The translations under genes were made by a program, and so were the position numbers. DNA of 63,529 nucleotides, the filler included, from Chrysochromulina tobinii (lineage: Eukaryota), in NCBI GenBank assembly GCA_001275005.1. It is 9 parts of 9 records of this genome, joined end to end, with 100 filler letters (N's around TTAATTAATTAA, not from the genome) between each part and the next. Parts side by side here need not be neighbours in the genome. Positions count along the whole stretch, not along the records: positions 1 to 9,798 come from JWZX01000326.1; 8 more parts are not named here. The stretch is one strand, 5' to 3'. The notes under the pieces were generated by a model. It was given only the letters and a program-made list of their open reading frames with translations. It made no database searches and was not told the origin of the DNA. Below are positions 1 to 51,600 of the stretch, piece by piece (the stretch's first letter is position 1; the number at the start of each line of letters is the position of its first letter).

Positions 1-267
1 AACCTCCCCCAGTGTAACTGATTGACTCTGACACTCACGCGCCGCATCCCCATCACTCGAAACGAACGGACAGGAGTGGCCGCCCCCACACACGCTCACG
101 CGTCATCACTCAATTGGCATCTTCATCGGGCGTCTTCGTGGGCATGCCCCACCTTCACTCTTGAGGAAACTCTCAGACAGTCACAGTGGGACTGTCTCTC
201 TGAAACTCGCGAACTCTCTCTGTAACGGGGGGGTCACGCTTCGCATCGGGGACTCCATGATCGACCG

Positions 268-975
268 TCACCCAGGCTCAGCGCCCACCACCTGCACCAC
301 ATCATCGATGCTATTCCGCCAGCCACGACCGCGCCCTCGACCTTTGCCTTTTGCTCGAGCCAGCCGCTTCTCGTACACGCCTGGCTGTTCCCAAGCGCGC
401 CAGTTCGTAAGGCTTGCCCCTTTGTTGGAGTTCATCCCCTCAATTCCAGTCGTCCATTGCACGCTGAGATCGACAGTGCCACCGATGACGCCGCCCGTCC
501 ACGGCACGTGGCTCGGTGTGTCTGCGCCGTAGTACGTTTTACGAACATGCCGATGCTTTCGTCGAAATGCGTCACTGTAGCGGCCACGCTGCCCATACAC
601 AGCGTGCTCCGGGGAATGCTGGTTCTTGAGCCAGCACTCGCCATACGTGTGGTTCCAGCCAGTGTCAAGGCCCCAACATACCGGCAATGGGCAGAAGACC
701 CAGCTATTACATGGTCGCTTGGCGTTCCGGGGATCTGCCGCGTGTGCTTGGCACCGATCGCAGCAGTCTTGCGCAGACGCTGCACGGTGGTTAATGCCAA
801 AGACCACCGCATAGCCGCCGGTGTCCGAGTGCGGCTCCTCACCACAGATGCCAGAGGTGGTGACGCCCGGGCAGTCTTCTGGGCACGAAATTGCATCCTC
901 AGCAGCATCGCACTTCTTATCGCCGCATCCCGTCAAAACCGCCACGGCGGCGAGAAAAGGCAACAGCGATAACAT
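268..975 (-). CDS. Secreted or membrane-anchored PAN/Apple-domain protein
   Basis: Hydrophobic N-terminus (MLSLLPFLAAVAVLTGC). The Cys pattern SAQDCCDRC...CNSWVFC...ECWLK...VPWTGG matches plant/algal Apple (PAN_4)-domain proteins. Intronless ORF. Confidence 0.75.
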   Translation of the reverse strand: MLSLLPFLAAVAVLTGCGDKKCDAAEDAISCPEDCPGVTTSGICGEEPHSDTGGYAVVFGINHRAASAQDCCDRCQAHAADPRNAKRPCNSWVFCPLPVCWGLDTGWNHTYGECWLKNQHSPEHAVYGQRGRYSDAFRRKHRHVRKTYYGADTPSHVPWTGGVIGGTVDLSVQWTTGIEGMNSNKGASLTNWRAWEQPGVYEKRLARAKGKGRGRGRGWRNSIDDVVQVVGAEPG

Positions 976-1650
976 CTTTCCCGGGAGGGGGACGTCCTTG
1001 ACGATTTTTTAGCTGTGAAAAGAAAACCTGGAAACCTTCCGCGCACGACCCGTATCAAGTTTGTGCATGCGCAGCGGGCATTTCTCAGGAGTCTCAGCCT
1101 TTTGACTGCCTGGACGCTGGAGTATGTTTCAGGCTTTCAGCGGTGCACCACCAGTGCACCGCCTCGAACTCAACAAGACGGAACACGAAGCGGGAAGCCG
1201 AACCGCGAACGCACAATTGCCGTACGCAACCGGCCGCGGGATCGGATGGCGATATGCGCGCCGAGCCGCCGACCGCGAGCGACGCTATACCTAGCGAATC
1301 CGCGCGAACGACTCGCGCACGTCCGCGTCGCCGGGCGCCAAATCGAACTCTCGATAGTAGCTCGATAGCAACATCACCTCTGTGACTCTGACTCCCTAGG
1401 CGCTAGGTCGGTCGCTTGGTCGGTCTCCCGAGCGCTACTGTCTCGGGATGTCGCCGCGCGCGCGCCCTCGCACCGCAGCCGCAGGTGGCCCCAGGGTCGC
1501 CAGCCCCGTGCCCCGGATGCGGCGCTATGGATACCACCATTCTCATCTTGCGAACCCTCCCGGACTGGGATTTGGCCCTCCCTGGGCCTGCTGCGCCGCC
1601 GCCTGCTGTGCTGCCAGCTGCTGCTGGTATTGTTGCCGCTGTAGCAGCAT

Positions 1651-1758
1651 CTGCTGCTGCTGCTGCTGATGCTGATGATGATGATGATGATGATGCTGAG
1701 GCTGAGGCTGATGCTGCTGCTGCTGCTGCTGCTGCTGATAATGCTGCTGCTGATGATA

Positions 1759-2006: not shown

Positions 2007-5000
2007 GCTTCCTTTCCGAGTCACCCGAGTTTGCACGCGCCCTGGGCGCCGCGGGCATCACGTTCGTCGGGCCGACCGTTGAGGTGCGACTGATGGCGAC
2101 TGATTGCGACTGATTGCCGACCGTTGAGGTGCTACTGATGGCTACTCATTGCCACGCATTGCCGCTCATTGCTGCTCATTGCCGCTGAGTGCGGCTAGCT
2201 GCGACTGATTGCGACTGATTGCGGCTGATCTTTTACGTTTGGACTTGCTCGCAGAATCTGATGACGTTCGCCGATAAGACGACGGCACGCGCCGCGGCGA
2301 TCGCTGCGGGGGTCCCGGTAGTGCCCGGTACAGCGCGAGATCACGAAGACCGAGTGCTCCTGAGTGCCTCGACTGACCTGTGATTGGCTCCCTCATCAGG
2401 AACGGGGATGATCACGAAGACCGAGGACGCGATGGAATTCGTGACGAAGAATGGGCTACCGGTCATCATCAAGGCGGCTATGGGCGGCGGTGGCAAGGGG
2501 ATGCGTGTGGTGCGCCTGATGGCCGTTGATGACCTCTGATGACCTCTGATGACCTCTGATGACCTCTGATGACCTCTGATGACCTCTGATGACCTCTGAT
2601 GACCTCTGATGACCTCTGATGACCTCCGATTGCCCCCCTCATCAGGTGCGGCGCGTCGAGGATCTCATACCGTTCTTCAACTCGGCCTCGTCCGAAGCCA
2701 AAGCTTCCTTCGGTGACGGCTCCGTCTTCATCGAGCGCTTCGTCGATCGACCTCGGCACATCGAGATCCAGATCATCGGAGATGGCAAGGGGAATGTGGT
2801 GCACCTGTGGGAGCGCGACTGCTCAGTACAGCGCCGCCACCAGAAGGTGCTCAAGACGGCGCCCGCGTGGACTAGCCGCATGCGGGCGCTCACCACGGCG
2901 CCCACCCTCTTCCCCACAGGTGATCGAGATGGCGCCCGCGTGGACTTTGCCGATGGAGCTGCGCACCAAGCTGCATGCGGACGCGGTGCGTCTCACGGCG
3001 GCGGCCAAGTACAAGAATGCAGGCACGGTCGAGTTCCTCGTGGATGCCGAGGGGCGCTACTACTTCATCGAGGTCAACCCCCGTATCCAGGTGTGTTCCT
3101 CTGATGGCGTCTGATGGCGTCTGATGGCCTCTGATGGCCTCTGATCGCCTCTGATGGCCTCTAATTGCCTCTGATGGCCTCTGATGGCCTCTGATGGCCT
3201 CTGATGGCCTCTGATGGCCTCTGATGGCCTCTGATGGCCTCTGATGGCCTCTGATGACCCTATCTTGCCCCCGATGCGCGCAGGTTGAGCACACTGTCAC
3301 GGAGGAGGTGACCGGCATCGACCTCGTCCAAGCTCAATTTCGTGTCGCTGCGGGCGCCTCTCTTGAAGAGATCGGGCTCGTGCAGGCGAGCAGCCCCTGA
3401 TGACCTCTGATTGCATACGATCGCATACGATTGCATACGGTTGCATACGATTGCATACGGTTGCATCTGATTGCATCCGATTGCATCAGATTGCATCTGA
3501 GTGCATCTGATGACCCCTGATGACCCCTGATGACCTCCCTCATCAGGATCGTATCAGTGCATCTGATGACCCCTGATGACCCATGATGACCTCCCTCATC
3601 AGGATCGTATCAGTGTGCGCGGCGTCGCCATCCAATGCCGCGTGACCACGGAGAATGTGGAACGTGACTTCGCGCCTGATACCGGTACGCGCTCGGTCTC
3701 TTCCCGCCACCCGCGGCCGCTTCTGGGCCGTGCGAGCCTGCGAGCATGCATGCGCTCACCACGGCGCTCGCGCGCGCGCTTCCCCACAGGCACGCTCTCG
3801 GTCTACCGGCACTCGGCCGGATTTGGGATGCGGATGGATGGGATCGGCTACTCGGGCATGACGATCACGCCGTACTACGACTCGCTCCTGGTCAAGTATA
3901 CCGCGCGCGGCTCCACGTTTGGGGAGACGCTGCTGCGGATGCGGCGTGCGTTACAGGAGGCGCGCATCCGAGGTGTGAAGACCAACATCCCCTTCCTGCT
4001 CAACTGCCTCACGCATCCGCAGTTCGAGTCGGGCAAGGTGCGGCGGAGATTGCGATGGAGATTGTGATGGAGATTGCGGTGGAGATCGCGGCGGAGATGG
4101 CGATGGAGATGGCGATGGAGATTGCGGCGGAGATTGTGGCGGAGATTGTGGCTGAGTGCGGCTGCATGCCTCTGAGACGGGCGAGGGGCTCACGGCAGCG
4201 CCCCTTAGGTGCCCACGGCAGCGCCCCTTAGGTGCTCACGGCGGCGCCCGTTCGCCCTCGGTTCGCGGCAGGTGACGACGTCGTTCATTGACGAAAACCC
4301 AGATCTCCTCTCGATCTCGACCTCGAGATGGAACTTTGCAGACCGTTCGCAGGTCGACATGAAGCGCGTCGGGTTCGTCGAAAAGCTGATGCGCTATCTC
4401 GCCAATCTCGCCGTCAACGGCCACCCGGCCGCGCTCGGCGCCGACCCGACGACGCTGCACAAGATCTCGTCGGACGTGTTCACACCGACCGCGCCCAAGA
4501 CGGCGCCGGCGACCGCCGACCCATATTCGGCCGACTTTCCAAAAGGAGGTTGGCGCTCGGTGTTGCTAAAGGAGGGGCCGAAGGGCTATGCGAAGCGGGT
4601 GAGAGGATGCACGACGGGTCTGATTGGGTTCTGATTGGGCTCTGATTGGGCTCTGATTCTGATTGGGTTCTGATTGAGGTCTGATTGAGGTCTGATTCTG
4701 ATTGGGTTCTGATTGCTCCTTTCATCAGGTACGCGAGCACAAGGGTCTGTTGCTCACCGATACCACTTGGCGTGACGCGCACCAGTCGCTGCTGGCGACG
4801 CGCATGCGCACCAAGGATCTTCTTGGTTGTGCGGCGTATACCTCGGAGGCGCTTGACCGCTGCTTCAGCCTCGAGATGTGGGGAGGTGTGCCTCTGATGA
4901 CCACTGATGACGCTTTGTTTGGTCCAGCCTCGAGATGTGGGGAGGTTTGCCTCTGATGGCCTGGGCGGCCCTGCATGCAAGCGCTCACGACGGCGCCTCG

Positions 5001-5212
5001 CCACCTCCCCACAGGAGCGACTTTTGACGTGTCGATGCGCTTCCTTCACGAGTGCCCGTGGGAACGCCTCGAGCAGCTGCGTGCGGCTGTGCCCAACGTG
5101 CCGTTCCAGGTGAGGGCCACTGATGATCACTGATGACCCCTGATGACCTCTGATGATCCCTGATTGTGCCCCCAATCTCCCATTCCAGATGTTGCTGCGC
5201 GGCGCCAACGCC

Positions 5213-5245
<33 letters not shown>

Positions 5246-8200
5246 TACAAGTTCTGTGAGCAGGCGAAGAAGAGCGGTACGTGGATGGCCCGCTGAGGAC
5301 CTTGATTGCCTGTCTGCTCGCCTCTGATGACCTCTGATTGCTCGACGAGGACGCGGCGGTACGTGGATGGCCCCGCCGAGGACCTGCCTTGCATGCACGC
5401 GCTCACGACGGCGCCCTCGCTTCCCCACAGGCATCGACATCTTCCGGGTCTTCGACTCGCTCAACTATCTCGACAATCTCAAGCTCGGCGTCGACGCGGC
5501 GCTCGCGGCGGGCGCCTTCGTCGAAGGTGCGATCTCGTACACGGGAGATGTGGCCAACCCGGCCAAGACCAAGTACAATCTGGAGTACTACGTCAATCTC
5601 GCGCGCGAGCTCCAGGCGATGGGCGTGCACTCGCTCGCAATCAAGGACATGGCGGGGCTTCTCACGCCGCGCTCGGCTTCGCTGCTGGTGATTGCCACTG
5701 AGTGCCACTGAGTGCCATTGATGACCCGCGGCTGGCCGCTGCATGCAGCTGCGCTTGCGCGCTGCTTGCCCCCGCTGCTTGGCGACGGCGGCCCTCACTC
5801 ACGCGATGACGAAACACTTAAGTTTTGATTTGACGAATCTGACGCCCTTAGGGGCCGTGATTCCAATCCCCGTGTTACTGAGCGTACGAGCACCGGCTGA
5901 TGGGCCGCTGATGGCCCTCGTCATTAAGAGCACCAGCGCGGCTGGTGGGCCGCGGATGGCCCTCGTCATTGCCCTCAATGGCCCTTGATGGCCGCGGATG
6001 GCCTTCGTCACGTGCACATGCTCAAGGCCTCTCACGACATCTCACGGGCCCCTAATTGCCGCTCACGGCCCCTAATTGCCTCTCACGGCCCCTAATTGCT
6101 GCCCTCGTTGGCCCCCTCATTAGGTGAGCGCCATCCGCAAGGAGTGCCCGGAGCTGCCCATCCACGTGCACACCCACGACACCGCGGGCGCCGGCGTCGC
6201 ATCCATGCTGGCCGCGGCTGAGGCCGGCGCCGACATCGTCGACGTAGCGATCGACGCGATGTCCGGGCTCACGTCGCAACCGTCGCTCGGCGCGATGGTG
6301 GCCAATCTCGCAGGCTCGAGATTAGACACTGGGCTGGATCCGAGCATGGTTGGGCCGCTCAACTCGTACTGGGAGACGGTAATCAACTGCCAAATACTAA
6401 TGATTACCATTGATTACCATTGATTACCATGGTCGGGCCGCTCAACTCGTACTGGGAGACGGTAATCAGTTGCCAATGACCAATGATTACCATTGATTAC
6501 CATTGATTACCATTGTTGGACCTCTCAACTCGTCCTGGGAGACGGTAGAATGGCACCGGACCTCCCCTCTGCCTGAGCCCCTCTGCCTGAGACATCCGCG
6601 CCCTGCATGCGCGTGCTCACGGCGGCGCGCACCCCCGTGCACCCTCCCCTTGCGGCAGGTTCGCTCCAACCTGTACGTGCCGTTCGAGTCGGGCCAACTC
6701 TCGACGCTCGGCATGCATGTGCTCACCGCGGCGCCCTCCTCTCCCCACAGGTACGTGCCGTTCGAGTCGGGCCAGCTCTCGACCTCGTCCGACGTGTACG
6801 AGCACGAGATCCCGGGAGGTCAGTACACGAACCTTCTCTACCAGTCTCGTCAGCTCGGCCTCTCCGCTAAATGGCCCGAGATTAAGGCGATGTATGCCAA
6901 GGCGAACTTGCTGCTCGGCGACATTCCGAAGGTGACGCCCCTCTGATTGATGTCTGATTGCAATCTGAGTCCAATCTGATTGCAATCTGATTGCAATCTG
7001 ATTGCCTCGCTGCTCGGCGATATTCCAAAGGCGGTGCCCCTCTGATTGATGTCTGATTGCAACCCCTCCCCCTGCCCCGTCCCCCTACCACTTCCTCTAC
7101 AACTCCCCCTCACCCTCACCCTTCCCCCTTTCCCCACAGGTAACGCCTTCATCCAAGGTCGTGGGCGACCTCGCACAGTTCATGGTCTCCCAGCGCCTCG
7201 AGCCAGAGGACGTCCTCGAGCAGGTGCGTCCTCTGATTGCCTTTGATTGCCTCTGATTGCGACTGATTGCGCCTCGAGCCAGAGGATGTTCTCGAGCAGG
7301 TGCGTCCTCTGATTGCCTTTGATTGCCTCTGATTGCGACTGATTGCGCCTCGAGCCAGAGGATGTTCTCGAGCAGGTGCGTCGTCGTCCTCTGATTGCGC
7401 CTTGATTGCGCCTCCGTGGCTGTGCCCTTTGATTGCGCCTTGATTGCGCCTTGATTGCGCCTCCGTGGCTGTGCCCTTTGATTGAGCCTTGATGATGATG
7501 ATGAGAGTCCTCTGATGAGGCCCATCATCACACGAGCCAGCGTCGATGACGACACCAATCAACCATTTCAGCCGAACTGACCTTCGGGCAGCACTTGACG
7601 AAATTCATGGAACCATACTCTCCCTTCGGAGGCGCTCGCTCTCCCTTCCTTTGATCTCCCTTGATCTCCCTTGATTGCCCTTGATGACCCTTGACGACCC
7701 TTGACGACCCTTGATCACCCTTGATCTCCCCCCTTGACTGCCCCCCTTCTTTTCCCCCCCTCTGACAACCCCCCCCTGCTTGCACCGCCCCCCCCCGCTT
7801 GCAGGCCGAGACGCTCGCCTTCCCCGAGTCAGTCGTCGAGTACTTCCAGGGTGCCATCGGCATCCCCCCCGGAGGCTTCCCAGAGCCTCTCCGCACCAAA
7901 ATGCTCAAGGGGCGCGCCGGCAAGGTCTTCGACGGCCGCCCCGGCGCGTCGTTGCCTCCGTACGACTTCGCCGAGGCTGAGTCCAAACTTCGTCAAACGT
8001 TCGGGCAGTGGCTCAGCGACAAGGATGTCCTCTCGCATGCAATGTACCCGAAGGTGTTCAATGAGTGGAAGAAGTACGAGCTCATCTACGGCGAGGTGCG
8101 TGATTGGCCTTGATTGGCCTTGATTGGCCTTGATGACCGTATGTGCTCATCTACGGTGATGACTCGCGCAATCAGGTTGGCAATCTGCCGACGCATCTCT

Positions 8201-9100
8201 TCCTCAAGCCGATGGAGCCAGGGCAGGAGGTGATGAGCCCTGATGAGCCCTGATGAGCACTGATCACCACTGATGGCTCTCTTCCTCAAGTTGCCGATGG
8301 AGCCAGGGCAGGAGGTGTCCCTCGAGCTTGAGAAGCCTTGATTGCGTCTGATTGCGTCCCTCATCAGGTGTCCCTCGAGCTTGAGAAGCCTTGATTGCGT
8401 CTGATTGCGTCCCTCATCAGGTGTCCCTCGAGCTTGAGAAGGGGAAGTCGCTGCTCGTCAAGCTCGTCTCCATCCCCCCCCCGAATGAGGACGGCATCCG
8501 ACAGGTGATCATGGAGCTCAACGGCGAACGCTGGTTCGTCTCGATCACGGACGAGAAGGCCGGTGCGGCGGTGCGCAGGCGTGAAAAGGCCGGCGCACCA
8601 GGTACTGTGGGGGCGACGATGCCCGGTGTGATCGTCGACATCAAGGTCAAGCAGGGCGACTTCGTCAAGGAAGGCGACCAGCTCGCGGTGCGTCTGATTG
8701 CCTCTGATGACAACGATTTCGTCAAGGAAGGCGACCAGCTCGCGGTGCGCGCGCGCGCGCGCCGTGCTGGGCGTGTGCGATTGCCTAATTCGGCGAGTCT
8801 CAAAATACGCGTGATTGCGTCCCTCTTCACACATAATTGCGTCCCTCTTCACACGTGATTGCGTCCCTCTTCACACGTGATTGCGTCCCTCTTCACACTT
8901 GATTGCGTCCCTCTTTACAGGTCCTCTCGTCCATGAAGATGGAGACTGTCATCCCCGCCCCCGCCACCGGCATCGTCGAACGCGTCCTCGTGAGCGCTGG
9001 CGACAATGTGGCCGCCGACGACCTCCTCGCCGTCATCGGAGACGCCAAGCCGCCGACCTCGGGGGGGGGCGGCAAGGTGGAGAAGCTCTGGGCGCAGTAA
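2007..9100 (+). CDS. PYC: Pyruvate carboxylase, 5'-incomplete, 21 exons: 2007-2083, 2255-2327, 2400-2509, 2646-2846, 2920-3090, 3284-3385, 3603-3684, 3790-4037, 4272-4598, 4729-4885, 5015-5109, 5189-5276, 5431-5687, 6124-6378, 6659-6672, 6751-6931, 7140-7223, 7805-8095, 8176-8229, 8421-8687, 8921-9100
   Basis: The spliced frame is continuous (about 1104 codons). Biotin carboxylase motifs: [41 protein letters not shown]. Carboxyltransferase motifs: [53 protein letters not shown]. Biotinyl domain: SMKMET. Confidence 0.95.
5801..5885 (+). ncRNA. Candidate intronic box C/D snoRNA (PYC intron 5688-6123)
   Basis: AT-rich island with C-like GCGATGA (5803-5809), D' CTGA (5839-5842), a GCCC/GGGC hairpin, C'-like GTGATT, D box CTGA (5878-5881) and ACGC/GCGT ends. 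TCCCCGTGTT before the D box is complementary to the conserved 18S rRNA stretch AACACGGGGA (rRNA sequence recalled, not searched). Confidence 0.45.
7534..7641 (+). ncRNA. Candidate intronic box C/D-like snoRNA (PYC intron 7224-7804)
   Basis: Terminal stem GAGC-C-AGCGTC / GGCGCT-C-GCTC, GATGA at 7545-7549, CTGA at 7577-7580, a CC-TTCG-GG tetraloop and C'-like TTGACGA. ACCATACTCTCCCT (7612-7625) can pair with conserved 18S GGGGGGAGUAUGGU using two G-U pairs. The D box is non-canonical (CGGA). Confidence 0.45.
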
Positions 9101-9898: not shown

Positions 9899-9901
9899 GA
9901 G

Positions 9902-10193
9902 ACCGTCATCGACAAAACGTCGTTGACGGTTTTTGAGCCAAACCGTCATCGACGTAAAAGTCGATGACGGTGTTAGTCGGAGACCGCCATCGACGAAAAA
10001 GTCGATGACGGTGTCTGAGCCACACCGTCATCGACGAGTGACGGTTTCAATTAGCACCTGTCATCGATAAAGTTTGTCGATGACGGGGGCTGACTCACAC
10101 CGTCATCGACGTTTTTGTCGATGACGGTTTGAGTCAAAGACCGTCATCGAGAAAGTTTGTCGATGACGGGGTGGTCTTGCAACCGTCATCGAC
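9902..10193. repeat. Array of ACCGTCATCGAC-N5-7-GTCGATGACGGT hairpins with 11-nt spacers
   Basis: Seven hairpin units (one with an internal deletion) plus a half unit. Confidence 0.95.
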
Positions 10194-10887
10194 ACAGGAT
10201 CGAGGATGTCGCCGATGTGCGATGACGGGAAATGACGGGAAATTTCGTCGGCCGACCGTCATTGATCGCAAAAGTTTTCATGTCGCAACGACCCCAACAC
10301 ATTGACAGGTTGACGTTGTTCAAGCACTTTCTGATGAGACCACGCAGCTGTTCGGGGGTGGGCCGCCGGCCTTCAGGCGGCGGCGGGAGGGCAAGCACGC
10401 CCTCGGGCACATGCGTGCCCCAACAAGCGATGGCCACCTTACCCGCGGCGACTTGGTCGAGCGTGGCAGTGAGCGTCACGCGGAAGCCGCAGCTGCTGTA
10501 GAACCTGCGAGCGCGACCACCGCAGGCCTCCAGGCAGGTGCCATAGCCTCCACAACAAGTCCGGTGGCAATTGGGTGCGGTCGTCGTTGATTTTCCGGTG
10601 CAAGCAAACTCCCACTCGTAGACGACCGCGTGTGGATCACGTTTCGATAGCTCAACGCCGGCAGGCGTGAGCGTCAGTATGTCCTGCATGTCGGACTTGC
10701 GACTTGGCAGGTGCGAGTTGATCGCGAGGTACTTGAGATCCACCTTGCGACCTCGAGTCTGATTGAAGTTGTAGTGAGTCACGAAGGCGGGTCCGTTCGC
10801 AAAGACAAACTCCGGCACCTGCTCACCTGCGGCGATGAGCCACTTGTTTGGGCCCAGCTGTTGGACGAGGGCGCCGAGCTTCGTCAT
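10186..10887 (-). CDS. Cys/His-rich protein, probable truncated WRKY-GCM1/FAR1-type zinc-finger DNA-binding domain of a transposase
   Basis: The pattern EFACTG...SSCGFRVTLT...WGTH resembles the FAR1/MULE N-terminal finger. The 3' end of the ORF runs into the repeat arm. A second copy lies at 11988-12472. Confidence 0.5.
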   Translation of the reverse strand: MTKLGALVQQLGPNKWLIAAGEQVPEFVFANGPAFVTHYNFNQTRGRKVDLKYLAINSHLPSRKSDMQDILTLTPAGVELSKRDPHAVVYEWEFACTGKSTTTAPNCHRTCCGGYGTCLEACGGRARRFYSSCGFRVTLTATLDQVAAGKVAIACWGTHVPEGVLALPPPPEGRRPTPEQLRGLIRKCLNNVNLSMCWGRCDMKTFAINDGRPTKFPVISRHRTSATSSILCR

Positions 10888-11103
10888 GCTTGCGGTGCAC
10901 CTTATTCGAAGTGGACATCTTCACAAGCGAGTGCGAGCGTGCGAGTGCGTCGCGGCGATTGATGAACGCTCAATTCGACGCGAAAGAACCGCCTGGAACA
11001 CAAAAGTAACGTATAGCAGGGCCATTCAGTTTCTCGGCACGTCGTGACTATGTCTCCGACGAAACCATCATCGACTTACATCAATTGACTTATATGTATT
11101 TGT

Positions 11104-12472: not shown

Positions 12473-12481
12473 GAGCCCTGG

Positions 12482-18628: not shown

Positions 18629-21600
18629 ATGCTTCCCGACGTTGTCGTCGTGGCGGACGCGGGTGCGTGCGAGTGGCGGTTTGGGTACGTCGAAGATGGT
18701 GGGCCGAGCGTGATTCTACCTGCACATGTGACTGCCGATGGGCGCATGGACGAGGCGAAGCTACCGGACGCGCTCCAAGCGCTCGAGAGCTTCGAGGAGC
18801 TGGAAGAGTGTGCGCTCGTGCTCGCCGAGCCTCCTGACGAGTCCGAGGCGCATCGTGAGCGCGCTGCAGCCGCCGCGTTTACCGTGCAGGCCGTGCAGGC
18901 CGTGTGCTGCTACCCTGGACCTCTGCTTGCCGTGTACAACGCCCAGTTCGACACGGGCGTGTTAGTGGACGTGGGGTTCCCCGCGACGTTCATCTACATC
19001 ATGTACGATGGCAAGAGCGTGCTCGACGGCGCAGTGCTCCATGGGCTCGGCGGTAAGCACTGCGGCCGCACGGCCGACGCGAGCTGCGACGGACTCTTTG
19101 ATCCCTCACTGTTGGACGACGAGCACGCAGCGGCCAAGGAGCTGTGCGGGCTGCCCGAGGCGATCGTGCGCACCGTGATGCTCGCGGACGTGAGTCTCCG
19201 GCAGCAGCTGCTCGGGCATGTCGTCCTCGTCGGCGGTACGAGCAAGCTCGCAAAGTGTCCAGAGCGCCTTGAGGAAGGTCTCAAAACCACTCTCGTGGAC
19301 AAGGGTGCCACGGCACTGATGCCTCGCGTGTTTGCCAACCCGGACCGGCGCCTGGCGCAGTGGCTGGGCGGCGCGCTGCTCAGCCAGATGACCTCAGCCC
19401 ACGGCCTCTTTGTGAGCCGCGAAGCCTTCAAAGCCGATCCACGAGCGGTCCACGCACCTCCACGAACGGTCGTCTGTCGCTCGTTACAGGCGATGGAAGA
19501 GCACACAGCGCAGACCAGAGCCACCGAGGCGGCGGCGCACGCAGCGGAGGCGAAGGCGACGCGCGAGCACGTGCACAAGCAGCTCGAGGCAGCGCGCAAG
19601 TTCTGGCTCGAACAATCTCCCGTTGGGAGCTCTGAGGAGCGCAGGCGCATGCGTCACACCCAAATTTGGCAGGTGAGACCCATCTATGAGCGCTCGCTGA
19701 CGCAGCAGGTGCTCGCGGCGGGCTGTTCACAGACCAAGATCGCCAAGAAGAGGCGGCGCCCGAAGAGCGGCGCGCTGGTCGAGGGCGATCCGGACGAGCG
19801 CGACGCTGACGACGACGACGGCGCTGGCGCAGCCGGCACGGGCCTCAAGGCAGCGCACGGCACGACGCCCAAGGAGCTCATGCAAGCAGCGGCCGCCGCT
19901 TCGGCAGCCAGTGGGGGCGCGGCGGCGGCGGCGGCTCTCGCAATTGCGGCTCGCGCGCTGCGTCTGCTCTGCGAGAGTGATGATGACGAGCTCATCAAGC
20001 GGCAGCTCCATCAGCGGCTAGCCGCCACATGGGCAGTGTGCGATCTGAACACCCCGAGCGTGCCAGCCGAAACGGTGCTGCGCCATCACCTGCGCCGCCA
20101 GACACGCTCGGGGTGGCTGCACTGGTGCGCCTTTGGCGCGGCGCGCGAGGCCGAGCGGCAGGCGGCGCGCGCGCGCCAACCAGCCGTGCTCACAGCCTGG
20201 GTTCGTATCGGCTCCAAGTGGGGCTCTCGTCGATGGCTCGGCCATCGAGCCCGCACCATCCTCCAACAGAGGAGGATGGACAAGGCCTCTGACTGGCACA
20301 GCACAGGGCAGCTCGGCGACGCCTGCGCAGTGTGGTACCGGTACGCCGACGCGCGACGCGCCGCGGTGGGCACCATGCACAAGGTGTGCGCCCGCTTCGG
20401 CTGCCGGCGAGCCCTCGGCGCCTTCTTCCGCCAGGCGCGTCGTCGCAAGCTCGCCCGGCTCTTCAAAGCCAGGTCGGAGTGGGCGGCGCTCAAGACGACG
20501 CTCGAGCGGGCGCTCCGCCAGTGGTCCTATATGGCGTCCATGATCCATCAAGCCGCACACGTGCGCGCGAAGCAGAAGAAGAGCGAGCGCGAGGATGGCT
20601 TGTTGCGCTGGGCTCGTGCCACCCAGGCGAAGGCGAAGGCGGAGGCCGACCTCGCCGAGGCGGCCGGCTTCGCCCGTACGGGCATAGCGATCCAGTTCTG
20701 GGTCGCCGCAACTCGCGCGGCGGTGGATGGGCGCAAGCGTCGGCGGCTCGAGGCCATCACGAGTCGCTCACGGATGCTCAAGATCCGAAGGCGTTTCGAG
20801 TTTCGTCATTTCGTCCGAGCGCACCTCGCGCGCAAGGCGCTCAAGACGCACCTGGCGGAGGTGCGCCGCCAGTTGGTGCCTAGGCAACTCAGCATGCATG
20901 TGCTCACCATGGCGCCCTGTTCCCTTCCCCACAGGTGCGCCGCCAAATGGCGATGCTCAAGCTGCGCTTCGATTCGATCAAGGCCGAGGTGCATCCGCCG
21001 TCCGCTGCCATCACGTTGATAGCCACCTGATGACCTGCCTTGCATGCGGGTGCTCACCACGGCGCCTCGCCCCCACAGGTGCACCGCCACATGTTCTTCA
21101 CCGCGGTGCAGCGCTGGGTTGCATATCAGTGGCGAATGAAACGGCGCGATGTCGAGGCTCGATGGCTTCAGCCGCGAGGCGATGGCGCCGCGTGCCGGCG
21201 CGGCATGCGCCGGTTTCGTCAATGGTGCGTGAAGGAGGCGAACTTTCACGAGGCCATGAGCACCCTCAAGCTGCGCGTCATCCCGCGCCGATCGTGGCGG
21301 CTCAAGGTCGACACCTTGTGGCACTGGTACACGCTGGCGAGCTGGCGACGTCGCTCGAAGCTGCTCCCGCGCCGCCGCCATCGCGTGCTCAAGGTGGCGC
21401 TCTCATACTGGTGTGCCGAGGCGCGCTGGCGCATCCAGCGGCACAAATGGCTCCGGCGGCAGGTGCGCTACATGGCCACCTGATGACCTGATTGCCACTG
21501 ATGACCTGCCTTGCATGCGGGTGCTCACCACGGCGCCTCGTCCCCACAGGTACGCTACATGGACGAGTTGCAGCACGTGCTCGACAACTTGGGCGATGGC

Positions 21601-30455: not shown

Positions 30456-33400
30456 ATGATGAACGACAAGGAGGTCGAGCGCGAGGCGGCCGCGCTGGTC
30501 GCGCAGATGACGCTGGAGGAGAAGACGGGCCTGCTATCGGGCAGCGCATTCTGGTTCACCAAGGCTGTCGCGCGGCTTGGCTTGGAGAGGGCGATGCTGT
30601 GCGACGGTCCGCACGGCCTGCGCAAGCAGGAGGCGGAGGCCGACCACATGGGCACGGGAGGCTCGCGACCATCGACGTGCTTCCCCGCCGGCGGCACGAT
30701 CGCGGCGTCCTGGGACCCAGCGCTCGCGCACGCCATGGGAAGTGCGCTCGGCCGCGAGTGCGCCGCCGAGGGCGTCGCTGTCGTGCTTGGCCCGGCGATC
30801 AACATGAAACGGCACCCACTGTGCGGGCGCAACTTTGAGTACTACTCCGAGGACCCGCTGCTCGCGGGCGAGCTCGCCGCCGCCTTCATCGAGGGCGTGC
30901 AGGCTCGCGGCGTCGGCACGAGCGTCAAGCACTTTGCGGCCAACAACCAGGAGTTCCAGCGGATGCGCGTCGATACGCGGGTGGACGAACGCACGCTGCG
31001 GGAGATCTACCTGCCAGCCTTCGAGTGCGCCGTGACGCGCGCGCAGCCGTGGACCATCATGGCCGCGTACAATCGGCTCAACGGGCTGTACTGCACGGAA
31101 CACCCGTGGCTGTTGCAAAAGGTGAGCGTCGCACCACTTTGAGTGCATCTGGTGGCATCTGTTGAGTGCCTCAGTGCCATGGCCACAGATGGTCGTTAAG
31201 TGGCTTTGATTGCCTCCTTCATCAAGGTGCGATGACCCTTGATGGTCGTTGAGTGGCACTGATTGCCTCCTTCATCAGGTGCTCCGCGAGGAGTGGGGCT
31301 TCCGAGGGCTGGTCGTTTCGGACTGGATGGCTGTGAATGATCGTGTCGAGGGCGTGCGCGCGGGCTGCGACCTCGAGATGCCAGCCTCAGGTAATTGCCG
31401 TTGATTGCGCCTGATTGCATCTGATCGCGACCTCGAGATGCGAGCCTCAGGTACTTGCCGTTAGGGTTAGATGCCAGATTGCGCCTGAGGCTCTGAGGTC
31501 ATCAGATGCCAGCCAGGCCTGATTGCATCTGATCGCGACCTTGATTGCCTCAGTCATCAGGCGGATTCAATGATCGAGTCGTTGGCGCAACTGATTGCGC
31601 CTCATCGCCTCCTTGATTGCCTCCGTCATCAGGCGGATTCAATGATCGAGCCGTTGGGGCGGCGGCCGAGGCTGGGCATCTGGACATGGCGGCGGTGGAC
31701 GTTGCCGCGACGCGCGTCACTACGCTGCTGCTCGCGTCGCGGCGGGCGATGGAGCGCCGTGATGAGCAGCTCACAGGGGCGCCGTCGTGGGCGCGTTCGC
31801 ATGCGGCGATCCTGGCGCATAATCACGATCTCGCGCGCCAGATTGCGCTCGAGAGCGCCGTGCTGCTCAAAAACGAGCGTGACACGTTGCCGCTGCCACC
31901 GCCCGGGACGGCGCTGGCGCCCGGTACGGCGCGGCTCGGCAGACAGAATCGGCTCGCAGTCATCGGCAGCTTCGCGACCAATCCCCGGTACTAAGGCGCC
32001 GGTTCGCCACGCACCCTCTGATTGCCTCACTCATCAGGGCACTCATTGCCTCCCTCATCAGGTACCAAGGCGCCGGCTCGTCACGCATCAATCCCCACAT
32101 GCTCGAGGTTCCCCTCGACGCGATCCGCAAGCGCGCGGCCGCCGCGTCGTCCCCCTCGTCAGCTTCGTCAGCTTCGTCAGCTTCGTCAGCGTCGCGGACG
32201 GGGCTTCTCCCGGCCGATTTCGGCGGGCTCGTTGGCGGTGTGGACGGGGCGGAGGACGGGGCGGAGGGCGGAGGGTATGAAGTGAGCTATGCGCCCGGCT
32301 ACGATTGGTCACGCTGCGTCGACGACCCTCGGGCGCTCGCGACGGCGCTCGAGCTCGCCTCGGCGGCGGAGATTGTGATCTTGATACTTGGGCTGCCCGG
32401 CTCTTATGAGACGGAGGGCTGTGATCGTGAACACATGAGGCTGCCAAGCCAGATGAACAACCTATGTCACGCCCTGGCTCGGCAAGTGCTCGCGCCACGC
32501 CGACTGGTCGTTGTGATCCTCGGCGGAGCCGCTGTGGAGCTGCCCTGGGCAGGTGAGTGAGTGCGACTGATGACCATTGACTGCCTCTGAGTGCCTCTGA
32601 GTGCCTCTGAGTGCCACTGATGACCACTGAATGCCACTGACTGCCTATGCTTGCCTCTGAGTGCCACTGATTGCCACTGATTGCCACTGAATGCGTTCGA
32701 TTGAACTTGAGTGCCTCTGAGTGCCTCCGAGTGCCTCTGAATGCGACGCGCCCGGTACGACGCTTGGGCAGACGACGTGCCAGCTATCCTGCACATGGGG
32801 CTGGGCGGGCAAGCGCTCGGCACGGCGCTCGCGGCGCTGCTTTTTGGCGACGCCTCGCCTTGCGGCAAGCTTGCCGAGACGTGGCCGTTACGTGTGGAGG
32901 ATTGCGCGTCGCACGCCAACTTTGCGACCCACCCTCGCCTTGTCGTGTACCGCGAGGCCCTCAACGTGAGCTGATGGCCTCTGGTTGCGCCTGATTGCGC
33001 CTGATTGCGCCTGTTTGGGCCTGATTGCATCTGATTGGGCCTGATTGCATCTGAACACGCCTCTGATGGCCTCTGATTGCATCTGACTGCGTCGGATTGT
33101 CGCAGGTGGGGTACCGCCAGTTTTGCACGCATCACACGCCGACCCGCTTCTGCTTCGGCCACGGGCTCACGTACAGCTGCTTCGAGTATTCACAGCTGAG
33201 CCTCTCGGCGCATCGCATGCCTTCCACAGAGTCGCTCCAGGTGAGCGTGCAGCTGACGAACAGCGGGCGCATCTCCGCGCGCGAGATTGTGCAGCTCTAC
33301 GTGCGAGATCGAGATTGCTCCGTCCATCGGCCAGATCGCGAGCTGCGCGCATTTGGGAAGACGAAGCTGCTGGAGCCGGGCGCCACGACGACGCTCCAGT

Positions 33401-34505
33401 TCACGCTCACACCGCGCGCCTTCGCCTTCTACGACATACGGCGCTCCGACTGGTACGTCGAGCTCGGCGGGCTTTGAGATGGCCTCCCTTTCCGAGCACT
33501 GATTGCCTCCCTCATCAGGTCGCTGATTGCCTCCCTCCGCCGGTCGCTGATTGCGTCCCTCATCAGGTACGTTGAGCCCGGCGAGTTCGAGATCTTGATC
33601 GGAGCCTCTGTCGACCAAATCCGTCTCGCTGGCACGGTGCTCGTCGTCGACGCCGACGGCGAGGAACGGCCGCCCAGCACGGCGCGGCACGACGAGTTGA
33701 GCGTGCCTCGTAACTACCTGAAACGGCCGCCCAGCACGGCGCGGCACGACGAGTTGAGCGTGCCTCGTAACTACCTGAGGCTGGATGACGACGGGTTGGC
33801 AGCGCTGGGGTTGATCGTGCCGCCGGCGGACGAGCGCACGCCTTACAGCGCGAACAGCACGGTCCTCGAGATCGTCTCGATGAGCGGCTGCATCAAGGGG
33901 CTGTACCGCGCCATCCTGCGCCTTGTGGGGCAGGTGAGGATTTCCACTTGATGGCAACGGATTGCCATTGATGGCGACCTATTTACGCTGAGTGTCATTG
34001 ATGAGACGCCGTGTTGGGCAGGTGGCGCGGCACACGAGCCTCGCGGAGCAAGCGGCGGGCGGCATGGGCGACGTGGAGACGCTCGTACGACTGATCGAGG
34101 TTGGCACCGACTTGATCATGGCTGATGATGGCTGATGATGGCTGATGATGGCTGATGATGGCTGCTGATGGCCGATTTGATGATGGCCACTGATGGCCAC
34201 TGATGGCCACTGATGGCCACTGTGATGGCCTCTGATGGCAGGTGGGCACCGACTCGATGAACCTGCGTGGAGTCCAGTTGATGAGCGGGGGCACGGTGCA
34301 GCCACGCCAGGTCGACGCGCTCGTCCTCTTCCTCAACGGCCGCTGGTGCTCCGCCCTCAGCCGCCTCTGCTGCAGCCCGCGAGATGCCTCGTGGGCTCAA
34401 TCTCGCGACCAATCTCGCGAGCCCAGCCGTACGACGTGGCCACCGGAGGCGGAGCTCGTCTCGCCCTTGGTCTCGGAGCGGGGAGATAGGACAGCGCTGT
34501 GGTGA
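30456..34505 (+). CDS. GH3 beta-glucosidase; exons 30456-31121, 31279-31390, 31633-31987, 32062-32552, 32772-32965, 33106-33452, 33567-33933, 34022-34099, 34242-34505
   Basis: MTLEEK, DGPHGLRK, GRNFEYYSEDP, KHF, LREEWGF.G.VVSDW (nucleophile), SAVLLKNE, ETEGCDR, FGHGLTY, EIVQLYV, RELRAF (FnIII-like). Confidence 0.92.
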
Positions 34506-38005: not shown

Positions 38006-38070
<65 letters not shown>

Positions 38071-45639: not shown

Positions 45640-48600
45640 CGACGACGACGAGAAGCCGCTGTGGGCGACACCCGCGACGCTCGAGGCCGGTGCGCTCATG
45701 CGCTGCATGTCGCCCAAAGTGGACGCCAAGTACCAGGGCACCCTTCGAGTCCATATTTGGTCAGCGTCGTCGACGTCGTCGACGTCGTCGGCGTCGTCGG
45801 CCAAAGTCGGAGAGGTCAACCCTCTGCGCGCCCTCATGAGCCCCCTCGGAGCGGCCAAGCAAGCGGTGCGCGACTTGGATCGGGGACTCCCCTCGGGCGC
45901 CGACACGTCGCTCTCGGCGACGTGGGTGCCGCTCGTGGTCTTCGAGCCTGGCGTGCCGCCGACGCTTGCGGCCCTCGTGCCCAACTACAGCAAGCTCGCC
46001 CCTTACGGCAACCCGGCCGCCGTCGTGCTCGTCGGTGCCAACTTCGCCACGTCGTATGGAGATCTGCTGTGCGAGATTGCAGCCCTATGGGCGCAGCAGC
46101 CGGCGCAGCGGTTCGGGCCGCCGATCTTTTACAATGGCTCTGCCATCCAATGCCTCGTGCCGCCGCCTCCTCGAGACGGCTCGACGGGCGACGTCAGCCT
46201 ACGCGCTTCGTCAGACGGGGGTGTGAGCTGGTCGGCGCCGCTCAACTTCACCTGGTGAATGCCATTGATGGTCTATTGATTGCTATTGATGGCCATGGAT
46301 TGCCAGCCTCATTTGGCACGACTTTTCGCGTCAGCCGATTGTGACGGGAGCGCCCGCGAGGATTGCTGCTGATTGCCATGGATTGCTGTTGATGGCCATT
46401 GGTTGCTGCTGATTGCCATGGATTGCTTTTGATTGCCATTGATTGCCATTGATTGCCATTGATTGCTGTTGATTGCCATTGATTGCTGTTGATTGCCATG
46501 GATTGCTGGTGCCTCCTCAGGTACGATCCGTCGCGTCCGCCGATTGTGACGGGAGCCCCCGCGACGATGGACGTGGCCGCCCCGTCTGCGACCATCCCAG
46601 TAAAGGGCGCGAACTTCGCCCCGACCGCCGAAAACCTGCGTTGCGGCTTTGGCGGCTTCGGGGCCCATGGGCAGGACTCTGCCACTGACCTGAGTGTGCA
46701 GGCTACCTTTGTTGCGGGCGGTGCGATCAGCTGCCCGCCCCCGCACCACTGGTGGCAGGTGGCGCACCTGCACGTGACCCACGACTATGGTGAGTCCTGG
46801 TCCGTCGAACCGGTGCCCATCCAATTGTACAACTCATCGCAGCTCGCGCTGGTCAGTGCTGTCGAACCCAAAGCGATCGCTCTCGTGCACGAGCAGGCGT
46901 CTGTGGCACTCGTGCTCCGTGGCTCTCACTTCTTCCGCCCCGATGCTGTGGGGGGCGGGCCACGGGGCCTGTCGCGCGTGTGCCGCTACCAGCCGCTTCC
47001 CGAGGGCAGGGTACTGCTTGCACCGGCCACCGTCACGGACGGCACGCATGCCACGTGCGCCACTCCCGTGCCCCTCATGCCCATGACAGCAGCCGTCGCG
47101 CTCAGCTTCGACGGTGGCGCCACCTACGGCACTGCCGCCGTGGTCACCTTTTATGACGAGCGCTCGCCAGCGAGCCTCGTCGCCGTCGATCCGCCCGACG
47201 GCGAGAGTCAGGCCTCGACGCCCGTGAGGCTCATCGGAGTCAACTTCAAGCCGCCCACCACGGCGGACGCGCTCGTGTGCCGCTTTGGCGCCGAGAAGGC
47301 ATTCGGCACCTTTGTCGACTCGGCCGCGATCGCCTGCCAAGCGCCCGCCGCGGCACTCGTCGGCGCGGTGCGCGTGTCGCTCTCGACCGACGGTGGGAAC
47401 ACGTGGCCGGTGCTCTCGGGGGGGGGAGCTCTCGGGGGGGGGAGACACCCAAGGGGCTCAGCGCCGCCTTGGACGTTGAGGTGATCGCACCCTTGGTCAC
47501 GTACGTGTACTACGACTCGTCGCTTGGCGCGAGGCTCTCGGGCGTGACGCCCGCGGCGGCCCCCATCACTGGCGGCATGCCGCTCACGCTCATCGGCTCC
47601 AATTTTGTGCCGACCACTGAAGAGGCGCGCCACCGGGCGGCGACAGTTACACCGTTGGGGACCACCGTCCCTGCACGGCGCCGGCGCGCCCTCGCCGACG
47701 ATGCGGAGGAGGAGGAGCCGCAGACAGCGCAGCGGTGGCAGCAGCAGGAGCAGCCATGGCAGGCGCAGACCCAGCAGCAGACCCAGCAGCGACCGCCGCC
47801 GCCGCCGCCGCAGCCACCGCAGCCGCCGCCTCAGCCGCAGGAGCGGCAGTTGCACCCGCCGCACCCCACGCAATCGCCTCACCCACCACACCCCACGCAG
47901 CCGCTTCACTCGCCGCACCGGCCGCACGCAGCTGACAACGCGGCCGCAGTTGGCGGCGGCGCGCCTGCCACAGCAGCGGCAATGGGCGAGGATATGCACC
48001 GCGGCCGCGGCGGCGGCAAGCGCAAGCTCGCCAACTGGCCCATCGGCGCCGACACGGCGCCTCTGCAGGTCCTCGTCGGCAACGGTACACGCGGCCATGT
48101 CACCTACGGGCGCGCCGTGTGCCTCTTCTCAGCTTCGGGTGTCGTGCTTGGCGCGACGCCCGCCTCGTTCATGTCATTTGCGCAAGCGACGTGCTTCTCA
48201 CCCCCTGTGCGGTCGGCGGACTCCGACGCTACGATCAAGCTGGTCTCGGCCGACGGGCTCGTGTCCCTCGGAGTGCCTTTCACCTTCTACAACGCGTCGG
48301 CGCCACCCATCGTGTCGCGTGTGGTGCCGTACGCGTTGCAATTTGGCGCGCCGCCCACCACGATTGAAGTGTACGGCTCTGGCTTTGCGCCCATGCAGCT
48401 CCTGTGCCACTTCACGGTCGAAGTGCACGGCGCCAAGGCCGAGCGTTGGGCGACACCAGCCACCTTCAAGTCTACGTCGCTGGTGCTCTGCACGGCGCCC
48501 GCCATCCCGCATCCGGCCAACCTGCACGAGCTCCTCCTCGTACCGCTCGCCATCACGCGCGATGGTGTGCGCTCGCCTGCCAAGCTCGAGGGTGTGGGGA

Positions 48601-51600
48601 ACCTGGCCGCTGTGGAATACTATGACCGCGGTGGACTACCAGCGACGATTGCGGCTGTGCCGCTCGCCGTCGACATCCGCGGCGGCGCGAAGCTCATGGT
48701 CTCAGGCAGCAGCTTCCACGACGGCGGCGCGTCGATGCATTGCGTGGTGGGCCACATTCACGTGCCAGCGCGCTTTGTGTCGCGCTCGGCTGTGGCGTGT
48801 GAGGTACCGATGGCGGAGGCATCCTGGGTGGGCGCCAACGCCACGCAGCCCGTGTGCGTCATGTACGTCGACGACGAGAAAGACGAGAGTGGGGGGGGCG
48901 CCGTCGTCATCCGGCGTCGCTACTCCGACTTTTGCGGCGCGCACGTCACCTACTACGACCCGACCCGCCCGCCCACGTTCACCGCCCTCGAGCCGCGCCT
49001 CGCCCCTTTGCACACGCCGACGGTGGTCGCACTCTTCGGCACGAACATGTGCCCCACCGGTGCAGAGCTCGTTTGCCGCTTTGGGTCGATCGATCGGCCG
49101 CCATTACCCGCCTCCTTTGTAGCCGGCGATCAGGTGCGCTGCGAGGCGCCCGCTGTGTCGTCTCCCTCCACTGCGATCGTCAGCGTCTCTTGCGACGGCG
49201 GCACGTCGTGGTCGAGCACGGGCCTGGCCGTGCTCTTTGCCTACTACGACCCCACCAAGCTGCCCACCCTCGTGTCGTTCTCGCCCACCGTCGGCGACAC
49301 GGCCGGCGGCACTCTCATCAGGCTCACCGGTAGCAACTACGCACCGACCGCCGGCTTCGCCTGCCAATTCGGAGCGCTGCCACCCACCCCCGCCACGTAC
49401 CTCAACACGACATCTGCCGTGTGCCTGACGCCGCCCTCTCCAAAGGTGCAGACACTTGAGCTGCATCTCTCTCTCGACAGCACGCAGCCCTCGTCGCACA
49501 CGTCGCACGAGGCGAAGCGCTTCACGTTCTACGCCGCCGCCGAGCCTCCGACGGTGATTGCGATCTCGTCGGGATGGGGTGAGACGTGGCGCCCGTTGCT
49601 CCCCCCCGTGATCCTCACGGTCACTGGCACCAACTTCGCGCCGACTCCAAATGGAGAGCTGCAGAGTCTCTTCGAGCCGTTGGTCGACGAGGGCGCGCGC
49701 GAAATGTACGCACGCATGCGCGAGATGCATGCGCCGCCGAGGGAGCTTGAGGTCGATCTCCCGGAGCCGCCGCCTCCGGCCATCGTGCCCGCGACCTATG
49801 TGTCCGTCACCACGATCCGCTGCGCTGTGCCGCCCATGCCCACGCCGTGCACCGCCGCCGTCTCCGCGTCCCACGGCAAGATCAACGGCACGGCCGCCTT
49901 TGGCCCCTCCCTCGCCAGCTACACGTACTACGACGCGCTCAGCACGCCCATCGTCTCGTCCCTCTCGCCCGCGTACACGCCCTCTGACGAATCCCGAACG
50001 ATCACCCTGTACGGCTCGAACTTCAATCCGAAGGGTGGCATGATGGTGCGCTTTGGCCAAATCGGGCGTCCCGTGCCCGCCACCTTTGTCTCCGTCACGT
50101 CCGCGCGCGTCAAGTCGCCGTTGCCTCCACGCGAGGGTCGCGAGTGCGCTCAGTTCAACTCGGCCAGTCGATCTCCGTGCATCTCCCTCTCTGTGTACGT
50201 GGAGGTGTCCGCCGGACCGTTCACACGGCCGCCGTTGCCTGTGAACTTGGGCCCCTCGATGGCCGAAGGGGGAGTCTTCACCTGGTGCGCCCGAGTGCCG
50301 CTGAGTGCCGCCGAGTGCCGCCGAGTGTTGCCGAGTGCCACCGAGTGCCACCGAGTGCGCCTGATGACCTCTGATTTGCAACGGGTCGGCTTGCACACAG
50401 GTGGGAACCTCGCCACGCCACCCGCCCATTTCTATCTGATGACCGCTGATGAACGCTGATTGCACCCCTCATCAGGTGGGACCCTCGCCACCCGCCCTTT
50501 CTAATCAGCCTCGAGCCCGAGACGCACCGCTGCTTCGACGGCGGCGCCTCCGTACACGATGTACGCCACGCGGGGCATGAGCTCATCACCGTCTCGAATC
50601 GCGCCTTCGTGGGCGTCAACGGCTCCAACTTCGCGCCCCTGCCCAACCTGATGTGCATGTTCAAGCGGCAGGGCGAGTCGGCCCGGGAGGCGTATGAGCA
50701 CACGGTGCCTGCGCGGGCTTGTGCCACGGAGTACTAATGAGTGCCACTTCCTGGCCGCCGCGTGCCGCTGCGTTGGGTGTCGCTGCATGCCAAGGATTGC
50801 CTTCGAGTGCCTCCGAGTGCCAACAATGGATATCGATCGCTACCGCTCACCTCGCTTGCACAGGTGCCCGCCGACTTTTTCCATGCACATTACATCCGAT
50901 GCCCCATCCCCGAGATGGAGTTGGGTGACGACGGCTCGGGGCTCTTTTCGGGGCGTGTCTCGATGATGTTCACCGTCTCCAACGACGGCGAGACCTACCG
51001 GTACACCAACCGCTCCTTCTACTTTGAGGGAGGGTGTACCGGCACATTGTCGCGCATGCTCGCGGGCCCGACACTCACCGCACTCAGCGTGCTCTTGGTG
51101 CTCGGCCTCCCCGTCCTCGTGATCCTCATCGCCGTCGGGCTGGGTGGTTGCGTGTACAGCTGCGGCGGACCCCTCCGTGGCGAGAAGAAGGTGGGCGCGA
51201 GCTCCTGTCTCCCCTACTGAGCTCCTGATCTCCGACTGATCTCCCCTTCTGAGCTCCTGATCTCCCCTTCACAAGGTGGGCGAGCTCCTGATCTCCGCGT
51301 GCGAGCTTGCATCTCCGTGCATCTCCCTCGGCGTCAAGACGATCCAACCGTACCCGGGGCACGACATGGTGGACGTGCGTGCTGTCTGGGGGGCGGGGGC
51401 GCCCGAGGTGTTGCCACAGGTGCGCCACCTTTGATCGCCGCTCGCATCGTCGCTCTCAATGCCTCTCCCCTTCCTCTCCCCCCTCTCCCCCCCTCTCCCC
51501 CAATCACCCCGCGCGCATTTCCCTCCGTCTCCCTTGATGCCTATCACTGTCGCATCTCGCCGCAATCTCGCCGCACGCGCGCTCGATCCTTGCTCTACGA

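Follow-up and report, generated by a model that had tools for sequence, protein, structure and literature searches.

Why should the first bases of an intron copy those of the next exon? The question is raised by a 63,529-nt stretch of Chrysochromulina tobinii DNA (the window), which is made of GC-rich eukaryotic contigs joined through N runs with linker sequence. The original prediction for this DNA held that the opening of many introns copies, with slight divergence, the start of the next exon and that a distinct mechanism produces such introns. We modeled 39 introns in five genes of the window, the set to which all intron statistics refer, and find such a copy in about a quarter of them (10/39), not in most. 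The copies of the next-exon start are 13 to 38 nt long, diverged, and begin exactly at the donor in all ten introns, so that the copy supplies the donor, as had been claimed. They are real and strongly nonrandom, and in one gene, encoding pyruvate carboxylase, they are backed by RNA.

Exon copies at intron donors

The signature was scored by gapped alignments, each anchored on the intron's donor and on the first base of the next exon, with mismatched intron/exon pairs as the control. Ten introns score at least 10, versus 0.03 expected from 1482 mismatched pairs (permutation p about 1e-5), an excess over a shuffled control of the kind anticipated in the original prediction. The copies are between about 80% and 97% identical to the exon. 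The repeat ends at the junction in each of the ten introns (upstream match score only 1-3), and the frame is restored after splicing. Bases that differ between copy and exon are spread over all codon positions (5/4/7; 9 nonsynonymous and 7 synonymous), as expected of decay inside an intron; an excess of synonymous mismatches, sought as a sign of copying from a coding paralogue, was not seen. The remaining 29 introns show an excess of donor/exon-start matches at positions 3-10 (94 versus 73, p = 0.0004) and none at positions 11-20. The ten pairs of positions named beforehand are all present, eight of them strong and two weak (20989/21079 and 50705/50864, the latter with 7/8 matching). Two further strong cases, 2328/2400 and 51191/51276, had not been named.

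A mirror type, in which the acceptor end of the intron is copied from the upstream exon end, had also been proposed. It is significant, but rarer and shorter, with 2/39 introns scoring at least 10 (5110-5188 and 33934-34021); a third match, at 32553-32771, spans only 7 nt.

Eight of the ten copy-bearing introns finish in one of two dispersed module families, in keeping with the stereotyped branch/acceptor end that had been described. Module A comprises the branch-like word CTGATTG, a C-rich tract, and TCATCAG; module B comprises GCATGC, GCTCAC, GGCGC, and CCCCACAG. The CTGAT and CTCAC words are, going by the general consensus, putative branch points. The introns concerned are listed here; those outside the pyruvate carboxylase gene are without RNA.

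2027..9100, + strand: pyruvate carboxylase gene, partial, with 20 introns; open frame of 1097 aa once introns are removed
2328..2399, + strand: 72-nt pyruvate carboxylase intron; 27-nt diverged copy with a 1-nt indel, followed by 45 nt that finish in module A; RNA joint
2847..2919, + strand: 73-nt pyruvate carboxylase intron; 27-nt copy (24/27, versus 2920) plus module B; RNA joint
3685..3789, + strand: 105-nt pyruvate carboxylase intron; 15-nt copy (13/15, versus 3790) plus module B; RNA joint
6673..6750, + strand: 78-nt pyruvate carboxylase intron; 33-nt copy (32/33, versus 6751) plus module B; RNA by length only
20861..20934, + strand: 74-nt intron of the actin-domain gene; 16-nt copy (14/16, versus 20935) plus module B
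21463..21549, + strand: 87-nt intron of the actin-domain gene; 13-nt copy (12/13, versus 21550) plus a 3' end nearly identical to that of intron 20989
31988..32061, + strand: 74-nt GH3 intron; 26-nt copy (23/26, versus 32062) plus two module-A units
33453..33566, + strand: 114-nt GH3 intron; copy of about 27 nt with one indel (versus 33567) plus a duplicated module A
34100..34241, + strand: 142-nt GH3 intron; 17-nt copy (15/17, versus 34242) plus CTGAT-type repeats
51191..51275, + strand: 85-nt TIG-gene intron; copy of the next-exon start (exon at 51276), then repeats of the copy
20989..21078, + strand: 90-nt intron of the actin-domain gene with a weak copy (5 nt exact, about 10 with a gap, versus 21079)
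5110..5188, + strand: mirror type, pyruvate carboxylase; intron end like the upstream exon end, 14/18; RNA joint
33934..34021, + strand: mirror type; intron end like the upstream exon end, 13/15

Intron 3685 starts with GT, whereas its following exon now starts with GC. Upstream of intron 6673 the exon ends in CT, so that the entire acceptor AG arrived with the insert, and the GT used there is missing from 3/3 orthologues. The AAG acceptor of intron 51191 is the same as the end of its upstream exon.

Spliced joints of pyruvate carboxylase introns 1-11 are present in 3/3 RNA runs, among the matches listed. Records of RNA run X13 keep a constant offset to the model at 2400, 2646, 2920, 4272, 6124, 7805, 8421, and 8921, and the summed exon lengths over the other nine introns therefore fit, including those of one micro-exon:

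6659..6672, + strand: 14-nt micro-exon placed by the model between introns 14 and 15; the RNA record length from 6124 to 7805 fits, and its residues are common to the orthologous proteins P0001-P0003

The RNA check of junctions that had been suggested thus succeeds within this gene, by joints for introns 1-11 and by length for the other nine, but does not reach the 19 introns elsewhere. These were modeled from reading-frame continuity and GT-AG ends in four further genes, all on the + strand (three introns in the actin-domain gene, two in a P2X-receptor-like gene, eight in a GH3 glycosidase gene, and six in a TIG-repeat gene); in the GH3 gene, Pfam positions continue through two junctions (235 to 237; 129 to 134). 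The copies in the pyruvate carboxylase gene are not assembly artifacts of the window. Contigs of DNA run X2 cover 2087-2553, 2605-3127, 3586-4657, and 6486-7002, spanning all four cases without difference, and L021, a second assembly holding the same locus, is identical at the four cases and departs from the window over the gene by three tandem-copy insertions and one substitution; both are short-read products, possibly of the same culture.

The pyruvate carboxylase model aligns with orthologues over all 20 junctions, and in a quick tree its protein clusters with the Chrysochromulina transcriptome protein P0015, in a larger clade that includes a Calcidiscus protein and is separate from diatoms. 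Its sole protein-specific gap is a deletion of one residue beside intron 2, for which a search for leftover codons of an insertion found no explanation; at intron 15 no such signature was found, the extra residue there being present also in P0001-P0003. The true first exon sits outside the window, in L021:2700-3300, the counterpart of window positions 1-1740, which lie upstream of a CTG run and are not the true 5' part of the gene. Because of this location of the first exon, and because an RNA loose end at 2006 matches L021, the window was probably joined wrongly near 1740, at a microsatellite.

Shared 3' ends and local duplications

Copy-bearing introns are the shortest (72-142 nt, median 81.5, versus 79-581 nt, median 191, for the others; p = 6e-5), with a floor at 72 nt; the part after the copy measures 40-48 nt in five of them and is longer in the rest. 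Their 3' ends recur. Introns 20989 and 21463, at two sites of one gene, are identical at 57/59 bases near their 3' ends, and introns 6673 and 20861, in different genes, at 39/44; intron 6673 resembles its neighbor 14 nt upstream only over 25/30. The best 3'-end partner lies within the same gene for 24/39 introns (12.5 expected, p = 0.0003), and module B has subfamilies common to unlinked genes.

In respect of terminal inverted repeats, expected of a DNA-transposon introner, the end of module A, CATCAG, is the reverse complement of CTGATG, and CTGAT stands at most 12 nt from the donor in 10/39 introns, being missing from several copy-bearing ones. Repeats of 9-10 nt built on the CTGAT word, that is, arrays of a branch-point-like word, fill introns mainly in the sense orientation (149 CTGAT versus 20 ATCAG in 6999 intron bases).

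Related units occur beyond the window. At L021:12092-12196, in noncoding sequence antisense to a neighboring gene's 3' end, a 73-nt unit consists of a 32-nt duplicate starting with GC and 41 nt ending in module A. A motif scan of viral contigs gave one real module-B match and four chance matches, and further scans gave none. The real match, at L001:2800-3060 at the end of a viral-collection contig, lies in a haptophyte-like intron that also has a duplication on the donor side; the contig is probably chimeric, showing module B in another sample. Fifteen matches in bacterial records, from a scan of genome contigs, were taken as chance (the start of L018 was checked and is bacterial).

Local duplications of exon junctions, of every kind, were overlooked in the original prediction. 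Some copy of a flanking exon is contained in 24/39 introns, with 11 upstream and 15 downstream copies where about 0.4 of each is expected. By exact-word count, head-to-tail boundary duplications are donor-side in seven introns and acceptor-side in five, and such arrays include introns 3386, 6379, 7224, and 8230. They correspond to the amphioxus "mirages," described in the available part of PMC3087553 as tandem exon-intron boundary copies with copy-number variation. The ten copy-at-donor introns do not have this layout: a mirage copy adjoins its source junction, whereas a downstream-exon copy at the far 5' end of the intron, used as donor, requires an extra insertion or deletion. In 5/39 introns an internal acceptor is followed by the next-exon start, in two of them as units of 72 and 75 nt.

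3386..3602, + strand: GC-AG intron with a 56-nt tandem unit of acceptor plus exon start; two copies in the window, five in L021
8230..8420, + strand: intron in which a 48-nt repeat piece is followed by the intron's own spliced junction, copied contiguously (34 nt from the upstream and 21 nt from the downstream exon), and by two 53-nt acceptor units
31561..31632, + strand: 72-nt tandem unit of acceptor plus exon start, beginning with GC, within GH3 intron 31391-31632; size and layout as in copy-bearing introns
46255..46520, + strand: TIG-gene intron in which a 49-nt repeat piece precedes a diverged internal copy of the intron's own spliced junction (-12 to +48)
50401..50475, + strand: 75-nt unit of GT-starting copy plus module A, within intron 50285-50475, abutting an upstream acceptor

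The difference in copy number of the 56-nt unit at 3386 may reflect assembly collapse or real variation. Tandem duplications also lie outside introns, with 57 nt in frame at 33665-33778 and 73 nt at the GH3 stop (34447-34591), and show high local duplication activity there.

Gain, renewal, or insertion of an element

Are these introns new? The orthologue on contig L024 (7.9 kb, with AT-rich flanks and a second gene, and taken as genomic) belongs to the haptophyte clade at 70% identity, and its residues 1-1077 align in one piece without any of the 20 pyruvate carboxylase introns; the orthologous protein P0012 is a single continuous frame, the longest contig of its cluster measuring 43.5 kb. Conservation of the 20 positions therefore does not extend to that distance, in agreement with the original prediction. 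L022 and L023 (82-83% identity, intron-less) were set aside as evidence of intron absence because their length of 4.3-4.4 kb suggests transcripts. GT follows the site at 9-11/20 intron positions in three orthologous sequences, versus a background of at most 9%. The phases of the eight GT-starting copy-bearing introns (5/0/3) fit the availability of GT in coding DNA (47/17/36%, p = 0.57), whereas those of the other 19 GT-starting introns (17/0/2) depart from it (p = 0.0008). Intron gain, by either gain route taken together, is in our judgment the probable history of the copy-bearing introns.

The account that we favor, tentatively, is that break repair or template switching may duplicate a stretch of exon and capture the 3' end of an existing intron, with splicing selecting the survivors. 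A staggered break or stalled fork within coding DNA would be followed by fill-in that duplicates an exon stretch, and filler would then be copied from another intron, in the same gene or elsewhere, as far as its AG. The product would survive only if the duplicate begins with GT or GC and the total length is about 70 nt or more, so that splicing is precise; growth of CTGAT-type repeats and junction duplications could later lengthen the intron, erasing or burying the copy. Such a splicing filter would explain why the boundaries are exact, why the duplicates are long and start with GT, why intron length has a floor, and why the mirror type is rare. Of the distinct mechanism originally proposed, the nonrandom, duplication-coupled layout stands, but the exact boundaries and GT start need no dedicated machine, since coding sequence keeps only spliceable products. 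A far broader version, which we hold to be rather unlikely, is an ongoing, element-free intron factory that pastes the 3' ends of the genome's own introns, possibly as excised intron RNA, into staggered nicks in coding DNA, with the 13- to 38-nt target duplication as donor; most introns would have been born in this way and would later have lost the signature to repeat growth.

Several observations weigh against capture during repair. The 72- and 75-nt tandem acceptor duplications at existing introns look identical to copy-bearing introns, each set beside an older intron. The share of introns with a module does not differ significantly between copy-bearing introns (8/10) and the others (13/29; p = 0.07), mean same-gene 3'-end similarity is borderline (p = 0.057), and exact microhomology at copy/insert junctions shows no excess (7 versus 6.4 expected, p = 0.45; template match at 8/12 junctions). 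The intron-less orthologue is too distant for dating single introns, and a metagenome scan yielded five loci with no close genomic relative among them, nor was an empty-site allele obtained among the loci returned (L021, L022, L023, and L024). The direct contrast in phase 2 is not significant (3/10 versus 2/29, p = 0.10; GT-only p = 0.14) and gets to p = 0.002 only after a post hoc move of three introns with internal copies. Finally, 19/39 introns are without RNA support.

The 72- and 75-nt acceptor units, being of the same size and layout, make renewal of old introns a serious rival, if in our view a somewhat unlikely one. An older, possibly introner-born intron would have had its 5' part swapped for exon sequence, either through tandem duplication of acceptor plus exon start and then exact loss of the old upstream part, or through partial repair from spliced complementary DNA (cDNA) or an intron-less allele. 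The first step is observed, in the five introns with an internal acceptor before the next-exon start; one array varies between assemblies, with two versus five copies; and introns 8230 and 46255 carry their own spliced junctions contiguously, as from a cDNA template. The donor/exon-start similarity of the other 29 introns would provide microhomology for exact deletion, and introner families in Chrysochromulina metagenome-assembled genomes (MAGs) average 48-108 nt, many of them 71-78, in 15 rows of the available part of the Gozashti 2022 tables, much like the introns here. Renewal nevertheless requires a second, exact deletion, which is not observed, and leaves the near-identical 3' ends at separate positions (57/59) unexplained unless extra conversion took place; that the phases of copy-bearing introns are closer to free GT sites than those of other introns also speaks against it, suggestively only.

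A fixed 3' end, variable 5' truncation, and variable target duplication are established properties of non-long-terminal-repeat (non-LTR) retroposition, and all ten introns show this geometry, fixed at the 3' end and variable at the 5' end, with a duplication of varying length downstream of the insert. A mobile element with a fixed AG 3' end (a non-LTR-type introner or an excised intron RNA) might thus have been inserted by target-primed reverse transcription, the duplicate becoming the donor. The module-B subfamilies across unlinked genes, the occurrence of module B in the chimeric L001 contig, and the lack of a microhomology excess are consistent with this, as is the figure of about 5% of classified introners arising from non-LTR elements in the available portion of PMC12130899. 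We regard it as quite unlikely, however, because strict module-B matches in the window are all at sense-strand intron ends (8/8, with 0/8 off intron ends or antisense), copy-bearing introns have neither poly(A) nor a terminal microsatellite tail, and the same layout is found with two unrelated modules and with plain repeat ends. Moreover, 11 copies of module B fold without one consistent hairpin, a Pfam scan of 16 frames, part of the window's frames, found no reverse transcriptase or transposase families, and mirror-type events exist too.

It is very improbable that the signature arises from chance similarity due to the splice-site consensus or from assembly artifact. Exons do start with GT in 27/39 cases and donors are degenerate; there is the probable misjoin near 1740, the TIG gene has two frameshifts, and the contigs are short-read only. 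Yet the consensus was retained in the permutation that gave 0.03 expected versus 10 observed, the copies are diverged rather than exact, and the DNA-run contigs and L021, which may come from the same culture, agree at the four pyruvate carboxylase cases.

Known systems, neighboring sequence, and meaning

The layout is new as a variant of known duplication-coupled intron-gain routes. In the available text of PMC4202315, Daphnia pulex neointrons from staggered double-strand breaks carry at one end of the intron a direct repeat of the exon end adjoining the other, as also here (10/39 downstream and 2/39 upstream). The Daphnia repeats are 4-12 bp and the source of their filler is mostly unknown, whereas the repeats here measure 13-38 nt and their filler is a 3' end common to other introns; the Daphnia gains are proven by empty alleles, while gain here is probable. 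In the Symbiodinium/Polarella introners of classes 4/5/6/8/10 (excerpts of bioRxiv 2020.10.14.339549 and Gozashti 2022 Fig. 2B), the element gives the acceptor, the target site duplication (TSD) gives the donor, and the exon starts with the donor dinucleotide, again as here. Those families have a fixed TSD of 3-8 nt each and end-to-end identity, as expected of DNA-transposon introners; the copies here vary from 13 to 38 nt inside one module family, and only the last 40-60 nt are similar, the 5' parts being locus specific. In the Rogers model of AGGT tandem genomic duplication (available part of PMC3443670), duplicated exon sequence likewise gives a splice site and a precise gain, but both sites and the whole intron are exon derived and the repeat spans both sides of the junction; here the junction is its limit, and the 3' part is of foreign origin.

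Introners of Chrysochromulina MAGs, from the same genus-level group and with similar lengths, appear in the available part of Gozashti 2022 (Fig. 2C and Supplementary Table 6 rows). The one figured there has a 4-bp TSD, its own donor, and a co-opted acceptor; it mirrors the type that dominates here. The C. tobinii and C. parva assemblies are in the genome list of that study, and the introner rows covered name only TARA MAGs; the single mention of introns in the available part of the C. tobin genome paper is an average. Among the literature titles and abstract starts covered, none describing this layout in haptophytes was found, and a matching family may stand in rows of the Gozashti 2022 supplement beyond those covered.

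Other contents of the window are as follows.

9900-12530: two inverted copies of an open-reading-frame-like region, flanked by arrays of 41-nt period rich in palindromic GTCATCGAC/GTCGATGAC; the pair looks like a transposon with subterminal repeats
18629-21801: actin-domain protein with a fused long Arg/Trp-rich tail (974-aa model)
28415-30242: P2X-receptor-like gene with 2 introns (Pfam PF00864, E = 0.0012, under the curated cutoff)
37515-41216, - strand: intron-less open frame of 1233 codons with no Pfam match
43726-52065: large gene for a TIG-repeat membrane protein, with two apparent frameshifts, one near 44375 and one near 47430, that are probably sequencing errors
54212-56188, - strand, and 61060-61309, + strand: the same sequence on two contigs (duplicate or allelic assembly)
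63029-63390: degenerate 18- to 19-nt minisatellite immediately 3' of an acceptor-like site at 63026

Where new introns come from is a question of long standing, and for most of them no donor sequence can be identified. In the candidate young introns described here, the donor is traceable to the neighboring exon, and the branch point and acceptor are traceable to other introns. Because a cultured strain with RNA data exists, gain and renewal can be set against each other directly through strain comparison. The spread of identity between copy and exon makes the copy usable as a clock for each intron, and searches that demand end-to-end intron similarity may miss introns of this kind.

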